Origin: Candidatus Latescibacterota bacterium
GTDB lineage: Bacteria; Latescibacterota; UBA2968; UBA8231
Length of the DNA stretch: 64,000 nucleotides
Assembly (NCBI GenBank): GCA_965206595.1
Contig: OZ242214.1
Location: 6,462,675 to 6,526,674, forward strand
Direction of reading: 5' to 3'
This document shows, in pieces, positions 7,058-16,575 of the stretch. Within the stretch, counting starts at the first letter, position 1. Each line of letters starts with the position of its first letter. The translations under genes were made by a program, and so were the position numbers. Below the pieces are notes generated by a model, which was given only the letters and a program-made list of their open reading frames with translations, was not told where the DNA came from and ran no database searches.

Positions 7058-7092
7058 CCGTATATAATACGGGAGCACCGTATTATATACGG
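7058..7092. promoter_or_regulatory. Inverted pair of AT-rich dyad sites CCGTATATAATACGG-gagca-CCGTATTATATACGG (CGTAT-N3-ATACG cores); candidate upstream activator sequence for the sigma54 activator
   Basis: Perfect 15-bp inverted repeats with a 5-bp spacer in otherwise GC-rich DNA. The same CGTAT-N3-ATACG dyad recurs at 12826..12844 upstream of the second sigma54 promoter. Without the IS it would lie ~140 bp upstream of the promoter at 8087. Confidence 0.4.
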
Positions 7093-7143
7093 CAGGACCG
7101 GAAAGCTGGTGCCACCAAGACGAGTTGATGGCGGCGAAAAGAA

Positions 7144-7998
7144 GAACCTATCTCAAAATTGAAATTGTTTAAGCAAAATCAAAATGGATGCAAGTTGGAC
7201 GAAGCCAAGAAAATTCTCCGGATACAATTCCCAGCGAGTGATCACTCGACGCTGCCATTGAAGCCAAGCAAAGAATCTCTCAACCATCCAAGGCCGCACA
7301 TAACGCCGCAATCGCCGTCCATCCTGAGTCTTTTTCTTGGTCCGATTCTGGCGATGCGGGGCGATCATCTCGATCCCGTCTTTCTTAAGCTCTTCATCCA
7401 ACGAATCGCTGTCGTACGCCTTGTCGCCGATCAAGTTGTCAGGTTGGTCTTCGATGAGGTAAAAGTCAAAGGTCAACTGAACCAGCGTCACTTCATGATG
7501 GTTCGCTGCATGCGTGCTCACCGACAAGGGAAGCCCATTGCCGTCCACGATCCCCATGACCCGCACCCCCTTACCTCGCCTGGTGTGGCCGATATCGGCA
7601 CCTCCACCCTTGGCCGCCGAGAACATGCCGTCGATGAAAGCCTCCGATTCGTCCAAGCCCCCTTGCTCGTGAAGGGTCTGGGCCAGGTCCATGAGAACTT
7701 CGCGTACCACCCCTTGACGACACCCGTTTTGAAAACGGCGATGCACGGTTTTGTAGTTCGGATAGCACGGCGGCAACATATGCCATTGAGCCCCGGTGTT
7801 TAGAATCCAAAGAACGGCTTCAAAAACATCACGGGTGCAAACCGGTTTGCGACCCCGGATGGCTCTTGGGACGAAGTTCTTCAGGAAAGTGATGCCGGAT
7901 TCGTTGCCATTGCATGTCGGTCAGGTTGACCATACACCAATGGTACATCACTGTCATTTCGAAAACAAGTTTAAGTTTGCCTATTTTGAGATAGGTTC
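7144..7998 (-). mobile_element. IS5-family insertion sequence (IS427/IS1031-like, ~855 bp) with 16-bp terminal inverted repeats GAACCTATCTCAAAAT
   Basis: Terminal IRs at 7144-7159 and 7983-7998. Lower GC than the flanks. Encodes a DDE transposase. Flanking AAG/AA direct repeat is consistent with a short target-site duplication. Confidence 0.8.
7153..7933 (-). CDS. IS5-family DDE transposase, two overlapping ORFs (orfA 7829..7933, orfB 7153..7828) joined by a frameshift
   Basis: orfA MVNLTDMQWQRIRHHFPEELRPK... stops at 7829. In the adjacent frame ...RDVFEAVLWILNTGAQWHMLPPCYPNYKTVHRRFQ... continues to 7153, the classical IS5/IS427 two-ORF transposase organisation. Confidence 0.8.
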
Positions 7999-8086
7999 AA
8001 GAAAAAGTGGTGTTAGTCAGCCACCGCAAAAACAACAGGTTACGAAAACTACAAACGCCAATTCATGGGCTCCCCGGCCATGTTCA

Positions 8087-8100
8087 GGCACGCCTTTTGC
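8087..8100 (+). promoter_or_regulatory. Sigma54 (-24/-12) promoter aGGCACGccttTTGC
   Basis: Matches the TGGCACG-N4-TTGC consensus with correct GG/GC spacing, ~74 bp upstream of the ATG at 8174. Near-identical core to the promoter at 12980. The flanking ~100 bp is homologous between the two loci, including a shared AAAAACAAC-NN-GTTA 15-mer. Confidence 0.55.
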
Positions 8101-14407: not shown

Positions 14408-14511
14408 GATGGAATAGCATGCGTTTCGGGCACTTCGTCCATCCGAAGTCGTTCCAGGCGGCCCGATAGGTCGTCCGGCGATATCCGTTCTTGAACTAAG
14501 GAGAGTAGCCG

Positions 14512-15489
14512 ATGACTCTTCCCCGGATCGAGAAACGATGTCGCGCCCCCCTGTTCCTGCTCCTCCTGCTGGCCGTCTCGGCCGGCCTGTCTGCCCAGGC
14601 CGGGGCCCACAGCGGCGGCCGCGTATTCCCTATTCCAGAGCTAACGGACGAGATGCTGGAACAGATCCAGCTCGACGACGGCTCGGTAGACGAATGGTTC
14701 GAGTTGATCGGCGAGCCGGCCATGACCCTGCTGGATTTTCAGACCCACAGCAACTTCCTACCGCCGGATCCCTCCAATCTCGACTTCCGCATCTGGCTGG
14801 CCTGGCACGACGACCCGGATCGTCTCTACGTCGCCTTCGTGGGCGCCGATGATCTGTACAAGAACAACCACGACTACGATGCTTTTGGCGTCCGAAGTTC
14901 TATCGACAGCCATGACAGCATCACTCTGGCCATCGACGGAGATCACAGCGGCGGGGCAGGGGTAACCAGCACTTCGTCGCAAGAGGAATTGCTGGAGGCA
15001 AGGGGCCAAACTCAGCGATATGAGGCGATTGCCCGCACCGTCAGCGGGCCGCTCATCAGTAACGGGCTTTATGAAGGGACCGGGGTATTCTCCTGGAAGG
15101 TGTTTCCTCCGTACGGGGATGCCGGCGGGGGCGTCTTCGGGGAAGCGCCGGTCATCAGCGTAATCGAGCTGTATGTCACCCCGTACGACCGGTGGGGGGC
15201 GTGGAATGAGATCGAAGAGACCGAGTTCAGCGATCTGGCCGCGGGACAGGTGATCGGCTTTGCGATCATGGTGAATGACCGGGACGACGAAGAGTTAGGC
15301 GGGTGGCCCTGGACACCCGAAGCCATGGAGCCCAGTAATCCCCGTCACGGTACGGAAGTCGACATGCGGAAAGTTCGAGCGGATTTCTTTCTCGACGGCA
15401 TCCTGCTGCCAGCCGGCGCCGAACCGGAAGGCACCGCGGTCGAGTCGGTCTCTTGGGGGCGGATCAAGGCCTCCCTTGAGATGGAATAG
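14512..15489 (+). CDS. Secreted protein, paralog 3 of the unknown family
   Basis: RBS AAGGAGAG. MTLPRIEKRC...SAQAGA|HSGGRVFPI and the family motifs; ends SWGRIKASLEME. Confidence 0.8.
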   Translation: MTLPRIEKRCRAPLFLLLLLAVSAGLSAQAGAHSGGRVFPIPELTDEMLEQIQLDDGSVDEWFELIGEPAMTLLDFQTHSNFLPPDPSNLDFRIWLAWHDDPDRLYVAFVGADDLYKNNHDYDAFGVRSSIDSHDSITLAIDGDHSGGAGVTSTSSQEELLEARGQTQRYEAIARTVSGPLISNGLYEGTGVFSWKVFPPYGDAGGGVFGEAPVISVIELYVTPYDRWGAWNEIEETEFSDLAAGQVIGFAIMVNDRDDEELGGWPWTPEAMEPSNPRHGTEVDMRKVRADFFLDGILLPAGAEPEGTAVESVSWGRIKASLEME

Positions 15490-15585
15490 CATGCGTTTCG
15501 GACACTTCGTCCATCCGAAGTCGTTCCAGACGGCCCGATAGGTCGTCCGGCGATATCCGTTCTTGAACTAAAGGAGAGCAAGCCG

Positions 15586-16575
15586 ATGACCCTTGCCCGG
15601 ATCGAGAAACGATGTAGCACCTCCCTGTTCCTGCTCCTTTCGTTGGCCGTCTCGGCCGGCCTGTCCCCCCAGGCAGACGCCCACAGCGGCGGCCGCGTGT
15701 ACCCGATTGCCTATCTCAGCGACGAGATGCTGGAACAGATCCAGCTCGACGACGGCTCGGTAGACGAATGGTTCGAGCTGATCGGCGAGCCGGCCATGAC
15801 CCTGCTGGATTTTTCCAGCCAGAATGACTTCGAGGCTCTTGATCCGTCCGACCTGGATTTCCGCATCTGGCTGGCCTGGAACGATGACCCCGACCGTCTC
15901 TACGTGGCTTTCGTGTCCAGCGACGACGTGTACACGAACAATCACGACTACGAAGCAATTCGGGGATCTCTTCGAGATCTCATACATCTCTATGACAGCA
16001 TCACTCTGGCCATCGATGGAGATCACAGCGGGGGCAGGGGCTGTCCCTACAATTGCCAGATGGAGGATTCGCGGGAGGTCCGTAGCAGAACGCAGCGCTA
16101 CGAGGCCATCGCGCGCACCGTCAGCGGTCCCACCCTGGATGATTCATCTACCAGATATATAACGGAAGAGATCGCCTGGACGGTCCTGCCTCCCTACGGG
16201 CAGGGAGGCGGCGGCGTAGCAGGGGAAGCCCCGACGATCAGCGTGATCGAGTTCTACGTCACCCCGTTTGACCGCTTTTCGTCCGATGACCCCGAGGGGA
16301 GCGTGGTCAGCGATCTGGCCGCGGGCCAGGTCATCGGCTTTGCTATCATGGTCAATGACTGGGATAGTTTTGATAGGGACAATGGGGATACATCGTACTG
16401 GGTACCCGAAGCCATGAATCGCGGTGATGCCGACGACAGGCAGCATGAGATAGATGCCGGTTGGGCGGATCTTTTTCTCGACGGCATCCTGCTGCCGGCC
16501 GGCGCCGGGCCGGAAGACACCGCGGTCGAGTCGGTCTCCTGGGGGCGGATCAAGGCCTCCCTGGAGATGGAGTAA
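15586..16575 (+). CDS. Secreted protein, paralog 4 of the unknown family
   Basis: RBS AAAGGAGAG. MTLARIEKRC...SPQADA|HSGGRVYPI and the family motifs; ends SWGRIKASLEME. Confidence 0.8.
   Translation: MTLARIEKRCSTSLFLLLSLAVSAGLSPQADAHSGGRVYPIAYLSDEMLEQIQLDDGSVDEWFELIGEPAMTLLDFSSQNDFEALDPSDLDFRIWLAWNDDPDRLYVAFVSSDDVYTNNHDYEAIRGSLRDLIHLYDSITLAIDGDHSGGRGCPYNCQMEDSREVRSRTQRYEAIARTVSGPTLDDSSTRYITEEIAWTVLPPYGQGGGGVAGEAPTISVIEFYVTPFDRFSSDDPEGSVVSDLAAGQVIGFAIMVNDWDSFDRDNGDTSYWVPEAMNRGDADDRQHEIDAGWADLFLDGILLPAGAGPEDTAVESVSWGRIKASLEME

Follow-up and report, generated by a model that had tools for sequence, protein, structure and literature searches.

We analysed a 64-kb stretch of Candidatus Latescibacterota DNA (contig OZ242214.1; hereafter the window) in which two sigma-54-type promoters, the palindromic sequences (dyads) upstream of them and the gene for a bacterial enhancer-binding protein (bEBP) lie next to genes for secreted proteins. 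Judged from sequence comparison, these elements likely represent a classical enhancer-dependent sigma-54 control unit that has been copied, as a cassette of approximately 250 bp, in front of secreted-protein genes. By the same comparison it is a valid and well-supported sigma-54 regulon element that would form part of a dispersed regulon. An earlier interpretation based on the letters of the window alone (the sequence-only reading) had described a self-contained module; this description did not hold, as the cassette and its target families are dispersed.

Dyads and sigma-54-type promoters

The core GGCACG-N4-TTGC has two exact matches in the window, both on the + strand: promoter 1 (GGCACGCCTTTTGC, 8087-8100) and promoter 2 (GGCACGCTTATTGC, 12980-12993). 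The chance expectation was 0.2, and two or more matches occurred in 2 of 100 shuffles. In both promoters GG and GC lie exactly 10 bp apart (aGGCACGccttTTGCg, 8086-8101; aGGCACGcttaTTGCg, 12979-12994), with predicted transcription starts at about 8111-8113 and 13004-13006, respectively. The dyad CGTAT-N3-ATACG has three exact matches (starting at 7059, 7079 and 12832), for an expectation by chance of 0.01 and with none of 100 shuffles giving three. Two of them would form the enhancer (upstream activating sequence) of locus 1 (CGTATATAATACG and CGTATTATATACG, 7059-7091, 20 bp from start to start), where the contigs L182 and L183 carry the same dyads, and a single dyad (CGTATTAAATACG, 12832-12844) would form that of locus 2. 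The promoters and dyads described in the sequence-only reading were thus recovered in number and position.

At locus 1 an insertion sequence (IS) of 855 bp (7144-7998, minus strand) separates the dyads on one side from the bend site and promoter on the other. By its transposase, inverted repeats and target-site duplication it is an IS5-family element: it has 16-bp perfect inverted repeats, a DDE transposase open reading frame (ORF; 7153-7779, minus strand) matching PF01609 (DDE_Tnp_1, E = 3e-11), and a 5-bp duplication AAGAA (7139-7143 and 7999-8003) deduced from the uninterrupted homolog in L179. Its similarity to Deinococcus IS5 elements is weak. After taking out 860 bp at locus 1, the last dyad starts 148 bp before the GG of the -24 element at both loci, the equivalent of the 135-140 bp first read from edge to edge. 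The upstream regions of the two loci can be aligned with each other, and an nhmmer model of the cassette matched the window once without a break (12810-13056) and once split by the IS (7038-7147 and 7999-8166), in agreement with the homology that had been noticed between dyads and promoters.

Between dyads and promoter, both loci carry a putative binding site for integration host factor (IHF). That of locus 1 (AAACAACAGGTTA, 8030-8042, + strand) is a conserved block in an alignment of ten cassettes, agrees with the IHF consensus WATCAANNNNTTR at eight of nine specified positions, and had an A-tract in front of it until the insertion of the IS. That of locus 2 was placed by alignment (AAACAACGAGTTA, 12925-12937, + strand), with the A-tract AAAATAAAAAA just before it. 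The 5' untranslated region (UTR) behind promoter 2 contains a conserved hairpin (GGGGUAGCG...CGCGACCCC, 13010-13036, + strand; z = -3.4), also present in L003, L010 and L022, with the ribosome binding site AAAGGAGG after it. P1, the gene behind promoter 1, has two small hairpins in its 5' UTR, ahead of the ribosome binding site (8113-8153, + strand; weak, z = -1.3), and L176 has a homologous leader.

Comparison with a sister genome and related strains, the closest relatives being Candidatus Latescibacterota metagenome-assembled genomes (MAGs), revealed the cassette also at L003, L004, L005, L010, L012, L022, L024, L051, L175, L176 and L178, and three times in L179. The sister genome CBDETY01 has at least seven cassettes and two bEBP paralogs; the three in L179 lie on a contig of a near-identical strain, and another cassette was found upstream of the Cys-peptide gene P0402. 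The blocks follow in the order: one to four dyads (tCGTATTAAATACG, 19-21 bp spacing), the boxes GGAAGCCGGTGGCGACA and GACGAGCTGA, A-tract, AAACAACAGGTTA, CCATGTACAGGCACGCCTTTTGCAT, hairpin, AAAGGAGG and start codon, and they are conserved block-wise with variable spacers in between. When L052 and L053 were counted as one place and the minus-strand row of L005 was taken as a chance match, 12 cassettes beyond the two of the window had both dyads and promoter. This recurrence, at no fewer than 10 further loci in close relatives, supports the assignment of sigma-54-type promoters with matching dyads. Among 13 distinct cassettes the -24/-12 element is conserved, and the start of the last dyad precedes the GG by 146-151 bp in nine, by 134-139 bp in two and by 168-169 bp in two, the latter distance becoming approximately 150 bp if an aligned degenerate third dyad is counted. 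The 5'-UTR hairpin (GGGGUAGCG-loop-CGCUACCCC, z about -3 to -4) occurs in nearly every cassette a few nucleotides after the predicted transcription start (L003, 5528-5553; also L024, L175, L178 and L179, besides the loci named above). It may act as an mRNA stabiliser or a post-transcriptional control element and matches no Rfam family: an Rfam scan of 6800-17600 gave one sub-threshold chance match only.

The core elements are also found in more distant relatives. In L052 (GCA_009841115.1), three perfect CGTATTTAATACG dyads with 21-bp spacing lie 146 bp upstream of TGGTACG-N4-ATGC, and in L184 the same three dyads lie upstream of TGGCACG-N4-ATGC. The bEBP orthologs at these loci are approximately 64% identical to that of the window in the sensor region, and the remaining intergenic sequence is unrelated to the cassette; the boxes GGAAGCCGGTGGCGACA and GACGAGCTGA and other cassette boxes were not seen in that of L052. 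Outside this clade the two-dyad pattern is too generic to be used for searching: a metagenome scan for two dyads 19-21 bp apart returned at least 80 loci, and among those listed none encoded the bEBP or the paralogs described below. They were unrelated palindromes in unrelated organisms, and the single locus that resembled the array, L098, is an iteron-like region.

Additional features were observed around individual cassettes. Segmental duplication spreads the cassettes: in L179 (13700-14050) a duplicated 3'-end fragment of the AIRS-family gene is joined to a cassette, and in L177 (1-70) the -24/-12 segment is tandemly duplicated and followed by (CATTG)n. A conserved palindrome AATCCTTTAGG-N5-CCTAAAGGATT, with a T-run after it, lies approximately 30-50 bp upstream of the -24 element in L052 (9320-9350), L054 (9420-9450) and, at equivalent positions, L184 and L185. 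It accompanies distant bEBP orthologs with both types of DNA-binding domain and may bind a nucleoid protein or another regulator, taking the place of the A-tract and IHF-like site of the window clade.

The adjacent enhancer-binding protein

A check of gene content confirmed that the window holds a single bEBP gene (9510-12711, minus strand), divergent from promoter 2. Pfam searches assigned Reg_prop (108 bits), Sigma54_activat (PF00158, 228 bits; cut-off 20.2) and AAA_lid_14, with a Y_Y_Y domain at 23.1 bits, under the Pfam cut-off of 26.6. NCBIfam placed the C-terminal half among activators of the NifA, NorR and NtrC type, under every equivalog cut-off. The N-terminal part (11062-12711, minus strand) is a predicted cytoplasmic double-propeller sensor of Reg_prop repeats. 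The C-terminal part (9510-11060, minus strand), which is in another frame, comprises the last Reg_prop blades, Y_Y_Y, the AAA+ domain (approximately 9978-10475) with a GAFTNA loop, the AAA lid and a putative Fis-type helix-turn-helix (HTH; approximately 9513-9650). HTH_8 was not reported for this protein at E <= 0.01; its C-terminus ...GAAALLGMKEERLRSRMRVYKL aligns with homologs that carry PF02954. The domain set and loop given by the sequence-only reading were correct, with reservations on Y_Y_Y and the HTH, whereas the single reading frame was not, owing to an extra T.

The same reading had considered this architecture unusual. It is in fact common: the homologs number more than 3,300. Apart from a few truncated products that carry Reg_prop only, the 120 best-scoring ones have a length of approximately 1,045 amino acids (aa) and an identical set of domains. 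The loop among these 120 is GAFTGA in 60, GAFTSA in 42 and GAFTNA in 6. The only source names available for them are generic, such as 'sigma 54-interacting transcriptional regulator', and stem from Gemmatimonadota-labelled MAGs; literature searches combining Reg_prop with sigma-54, enhancer-binding protein with beta-propeller, and Latescibacteria with sigma-54 found no paper describing this bEBP class.

By phmmer the sensor is homologous to PDB 3v9f (E = 1e-43) and 4a2l (E = 3e-32). Both belong, like 3OTT/3VA6, to the periplasmic sensor domains of Bacteroides thetaiotaomicron hybrid two-component systems (HTCS; 4A2L/4A2M being BT4663), in which a homologous Reg_prop double beta-propeller and Y_Y_Y module is present. 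In Bacteroides HTCS this module binds glycan breakdown products and is joined to a histidine kinase, a receiver and an AraC output. In contrast, the sensor of the bEBP is joined to a sigma-54 AAA+ domain and HTH, and has neither signal peptide nor hydrophobic segment (maximal 19-residue Kyte-Doolittle average, 1.21). It thus lacks the flanking membrane helices that place HTCS-type sensors in the periplasm, and 117 of 120 homologs are likewise without any segment above 1.6. The absence of membrane helices together with the direct fusion to AAA+ and HTH suggests that the bEBP would be a cytoplasmic one-component regulator.

The adjacent bEBP had been named as the likely binder of the dyads. This is supported by the dyads beside the orthologs of approximately 64% identity and by co-variation of protein and DNA: an HTH with ERLRSRMRV(Y/F) pairs with CGTAT dyads, and one with EKLRYRMRKH pairs with GTCGT(T/G)CAAAA repeats. 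Of the arguments at hand for the dyads being the enhancer of this bEBP, the parallel change of HTH type and repeat type is the strongest. The sister subfamily with EKLRYRMRKH has a GAFTSA loop, and its GTCGT(T/G)CAAAA direct repeats (GTCGTTCAAAA repeats, a type differing from the CGTAT dyads) occur in three to four copies with an 11-bp period (L054, 9270-9330; L185, 8180-8240). Its promoter TGGCACAaaatGTGCA drives two secreted AhpC/TSA-redoxin proteins.

From this anatomy we propose that bEBP dimers would use the predicted Fis-type HTH at their C-terminus to bind the CGTAT-N3-ATACG dyads. One to four dyads are present, two helical turns apart, and three of them would hold three dimers, the stoichiometry of one hexamer. 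The A-tract and IHF-like site, approximately 50 bp upstream of the -24 element, would bend the DNA, and the AAA+ ring would contact with its GAFTNA loop the sigma-54 holoenzyme at GGCACG-N4-TTGC and open the promoter; transcription from both promoters would accordingly depend on sigma-54. The N-terminal double-propeller/Y_Y_Y domain of approximately 730 aa probably gates the ATPase upon binding of a cytoplasmic ligand, plausibly an imported oligosaccharide. A cytoplasmic ligand that may be a glycan fragment is suggested by the homology to HTCS sensors and by glycan-degrading genes in the window, which encode a sulfatase, a protein with an F5/8 type C domain and a glucuronyl-esterase-like protein. 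The outputs would be a Cys/His-rich secreted peptide and proteins of the carbohydrate-binding module family 9 (CBM9) fold, in relatives also PD40 and WD40 propeller proteins, and these targets may bind glycans, metal or both.

NifA/nifH, XylR/Pu and NtrC/glnAp2 are enhancer-dependent sigma-54 systems with an IHF bend. The unit described here resembles them in its tandem dyads approximately 150-190 bp upstream of the -24 GG, the A/T-rich IHF-like site in between, the GG-N10-GC promoter, and an AAA+ activator with a GAFTGA-type loop and a putative C-terminal Fis-type HTH whose gene is divergent from the target. It differs from them in the dyad sequence, in the array of one to four dyads that varies by slippage, in the copying of the whole unit to many loci, and in a sensor that is neither a receiver nor a GAF, V4R or PAS domain.

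Secreted products behind the promoters

Promoter 1 precedes P1, and promoter 2 precedes the gene for the Cys/His-rich peptide, followed by P2, P3, P4 and a PD40 gene. P1 (8174-9157), P2 (13463-14407), P3 (14512-15489) and P4 (15586-16575), all on the + strand, encode secreted paralogs that are mutually 51-67% identical, have signal peptides and end with WGRIKASL; P1 (327 aa) has a signal peptide that ends ...AEA before a His, and carries TWGRIKASLELK at its C-terminus. The family has 612 matches in a 90%-clustered database and at least 871 representatives at 50% identity, and is expanded within genomes: one Latescibacterota genome of 6.78 Mb holds more than 30 copies, and there may be up to 35 or more per genome. 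The window itself contains four paralogs and one Cys-rich peptide gene.

The sequence-only reading had placed these targets in no recognisable family, and Pfam and NCBIfam searches indeed gave no assignment for the window paralogs; 13 of 113 relatives matched Pfam CBM9_1 weakly, at E >= 0.004 and below the gathering threshold. Structure prediction led to a different result. AlphaFold2 modelled P3 with a pLDDT of 81 when given an alignment of 113 sequences (27 with the four window paralogs alone), and in a Foldseek search with this model CBM9 structures were the only matches at probability 1.00, the significant matches being CBM9 and DOMON-like only. According to the model, the paralogs have a CBM9 beta-sandwich fold. 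Compared with established family 9 modules (Thermotoga maritima Xyn10A CBM9-2, 1I82; Caldicellulosiruptor 7NWN/7NWO), the paralogs are stand-alone secreted proteins of approximately 320 aa and not enzyme modules, contain insertions of approximately 100 aa, carry a near-invariant coupled N-terminal His and a disordered SWGRIK tag, and remain under the Pfam threshold.

In all 73 pattern-matched representatives the signal peptide AxA is directly followed by H-x-G-D-R-V-Y-P-I, and His occupies the aligned mature N-terminal column in 107 of 129 representatives, the others having Q, D or A. This residue (H33 of the precursor, His1 of the mature protein) co-varies with H145 (H113 in mature numbering) of the DGDHSGG motif: both were present in 102 sequences, H33 only in 1, H145 only in 12 and neither in 10 (Fisher p = 4e-8, a value to be read with possible phylogenetic clustering in mind, see below). 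The coupling suggests a shared site that includes the free N-terminus, putatively for a metal or ligand. A site involving a free N-terminal His is the hallmark of histidine-brace proteins, and a coupled His pair including the mature N-terminal residue is a signature that was used earlier in discovering new families of lytic polysaccharide monooxygenases (LPMOs). With histidine-brace copper proteins (LPMO AA9-AA17, X325, CopC) the paralogs share the secreted, here predicted, beta-sandwich, the His as first mature residue and a co-varying second His. Unlike in LPMOs, the predicted fold is CBM9/DOMON-like and not Ig/FnIII-like, and there is no sequence similarity. One could speculate, although we regard this as unlikely, that the paralogs are secreted histidine-brace metalloproteins (Cu-dependent, LPMO-like or redox-active) on a CBM9/DOMON scaffold, which would be exported or docked by the SWGRIK tag and produced when the HTCS-like bEBP senses an imported glycan, with the peptide as metal chaperone. 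Literature searches for histidine brace with CBM9, histidine brace with DOMON, and Latescibacteria with CBM9 found nothing relevant.

At the C-terminus of the paralogs, approximately 20 residues (...TAVESVSWGRIKASLE) are almost invariant although disorder is predicted for them (pLDDT <50). The consensus of this tag is ...[ST]AVE[ST]xSWGRIK[AS]xL, and in the window (9098-9157, 14357-14407, 15430-15489 and 16516-16575) it is confined to the four paralogs. PD40 and WD40 propeller proteins encoded downstream of dyad/sigma-54 promoters in L052 (12852-14853) and L184 (8461-12524) also terminate in this tag, and looser versions are found at the end of other secreted proteins. Neither the tag nor the proteins bearing it matched NCBIfam sorting-domain models or PDB chains, and a literature search for the string WGRIK found nothing relevant. 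The tag is probably a sorting or docking motif. Elsewhere in the window (40176-44485), two large secreted proteins end with FlgD_ig, CHU_C or Por_Secre_tail domains of the type IX secretion system type, one of them with an F5/8 type C domain; these domains indicate that the organism has a second, different C-terminal sorting system.

The secreted Cys/His-rich peptide (75 aa; 13054-13281, + strand) has a mature part that starts with His after ...VDA. Its homologs form 52 clusters which have in common the motif CAYxC...H...CxC, and most of them start with His after signal-peptide cleavage. Between this gene and P2, folding predicted a hairpin whose 15-bp stem is perfectly paired and which lacks a U-tract (13327-13363, + strand). 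It may function as internal attenuator or as a stabiliser of the mRNA 3' end, and may set unequal expression of the peptide and the downstream paralogs.

A probably decaying copy and alternative interpretations

Several features indicate that the regulatory unit in this genome is probably decaying: a frameshift in the bEBP gene, a collapse of dyads at locus 2, the displacement of the locus 1 dyads by 860 bp through the IS, and a deletion in the PD40 gene. The bEBP is encoded by two overlapping ORFs in different frames (10258-12930 and 9510-11132), and no intact single ORF joins sensor, AAA+ and HTH in the window. The frame is lost through one extra T at 11060/11061 relative to the orthologs L003 and L012, and deleting this T restores a protein of 1,066 aa. 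Programmed frameshifting at this point was considered and rejected, as there is no slippery motif and the orthologs keep their frame without any such shift. L182 and L183 have the extra T, the IS and the dyad counts in common with the window; they are contigs from two other samples that are 99.6-99.7% identical to the window with 17-19 substitutions. A lesion shared by samples that differ by substitutions indicates that the frameshift is probably real. On contigs from three samples the C-terminal part is called as a separate product of 520 aa.

At locus 2 the window has one dyad, for three in the ortholog L003 and in the 95%-identical strain L175. The outer flanks being identical, this loss represents a 40-bp collapse, and the single dyad would be the remnant of a three-dyad array. 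The gene for a TolB-like PD40 beta-propeller is likewise a remnant (16660-17281, + strand), with residues 1-179 in the ORF 16660-17217 and residues 262-294 in another frame at 17183-17281; relative to L003 (9079-9963), approximately 82 internal aa are deleted and the frame is changed. Paralog order and number vary among strains. In L003 the PD40 gene is followed by one more paralog, which the window lacks, and the order in L175 is Cys peptide, paralog, PD40, paralog, paralog.

A separate observation concerns P1, in which a tract of 15 G (8390-8404) encodes GGGGGG. In L182 the tract has 18 G, which keeps the frame; in L183 it has 8 G, and the loss of frame splits P1 into ORFs of 200 and 131 aa. 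The difference is due either to a phase-variable secreted protein or to errors of long-read sequencing in the homopolymer.

Some observations weigh against parts of our interpretation. With 11-13x coverage indicated by the contig names, a systematic error of long-read sequencing could lie behind the shared frameshift. The IHF-like site is a 12/13 match, and the consensus it was matched to is loose. The sequences without both His may be clustered phylogenetically, which would inflate the Fisher test. Finally, the cassette was found at only 8 of approximately 45 paralog loci in the sister genomes, so that most members of the paralog family must be controlled in some other way; a scan with a looser sigma-54 consensus upstream of approximately 40 paralog genes gave no further convincing promoters, and several of its apparent GG-N10-GC matches fall inside the Cys-peptide coding sequence.

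Low coverage also matters for the possibility that this genome has a module in full working order, either because the extra T is a systematic basecalling or assembly error or because the 520-aa product, started at an internal ATG at 11072 and comprising Y_Y_Y, AAA+ and HTH but little of the sensor, is a signal-independent constitutive activator. N-terminal deletions of XylR, DmpR and NorR act as constitutive activators. Judging by their names, the contigs come from long-read assemblies of low coverage (3x, 11x, 13x), members of the same 90%-identity bEBP cluster are truncated at varied points (803, 797 and 490 aa) with one intact at 1,070 aa, and the P1 tract of 15, 18 or 8 G points to indel noise or real variation in the data. 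Moreover, the four paralog ORFs and the peptide ORF are all intact, and 13 nt before the internal ATG there is a GGGGGA motif. However, this spacing is long for a Shine-Dalgarno-like motif, the site of the extra T, CTCT[T]GTC, is no long homopolymer, and the T is common to the contigs of three samples that mutually differ by 17-19 substitutions over 7.2 kb. Three other independent lesions (IS, dyad collapse, PD40 deletion) lie within the same 10 kb. On balance we consider an intact function of this copy a tentative option that is less probable than its decay.

The remaining alternatives concern the nature of the cassette. The dyads could be operators of another regulator, a repressor or a second activator, with the bEBP binding a different box such as GGAAGCCGGTGGCGACA or GACGAGCTGA. 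These boxes are also kept among the cassettes of close relatives, but the distant L052 and L184 retain in their intergenic sequence dyads, promoter and spacing beside a bEBP ortholog and not the boxes. The geometry of the dyads, tandem, two helical turns apart and approximately 150-190 bp upstream, is typical of bEBP enhancers, the HTH type co-varies with the repeat type, and the cassette shows no consistent linkage to any other regulator gene, which together make this alternative very improbable. We give still less credence to the cassette being a dispersed repeat or miniature mobile element whose motifs were kept by recent copying and not by promoter function. It would account for the many copies per genome, for the flanking DNA brought along by segmental duplication (the AIRS fragment of L179) and for the tandem promoter segment of L177. 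Yet the cassette has no terminal repeats of its own, always points toward a secreted-protein gene with a ribosome binding site at a fixed distance, shows the block-wise conservation described above, keeps its core elements at 64% identity of the bEBP sensor, and is linked to a sigma-54 activator gene. An enhancer-dependent sigma-54 control unit therefore remains the interpretation that we favour.

Housekeeping genes flank the unit upstream (ureF, ureG, hemC, cobA-hemD and an AIRS-family gene) and downstream (Fe-ADH, LarA-like and Zn-ADH). The G+C content at 7000-17000 falls to 52-66%, as compared with approximately 70% in the flank upstream of it. We rejected horizontal acquisition of an island as explanation for this dip between 7 and 17 kb, since synteny with L003 extends from the AIRS gene across the bEBP as far as Fe-ADH. 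Relative to L003 the window has only 6889-9455 as extra sequence (locus 1 cassette, IS and P1), and the block from the bEBP to Fe-ADH is ancestral.

Together, the components described here are uncharacterised and the mechanism is classical, so that the regulatory logic is textbook sigma-54 control and not a new one. New is a large, uncharacterised bEBP subfamily of Latescibacterota and Gemmatimonadota metagenomes, for which an operator and a promoter are now predicted, and in which the glycan-sensing double-propeller of Bacteroides HTCS appears to have become cytoplasmic and joined to a sigma-54 ATPase. New as well are a secreted protein family without Pfam assignment that has a predicted CBM9 fold and a coupled His pair, and a short conserved C-terminal tag on unrelated folds in the same regulons, a candidate sorting or docking signal. 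To our knowledge, Latescibacterota is a phylum without cultured representatives. Within it, the window would show one decaying copy of such a regulon, and enhancer arrays that gain and lose dyads by slippage.

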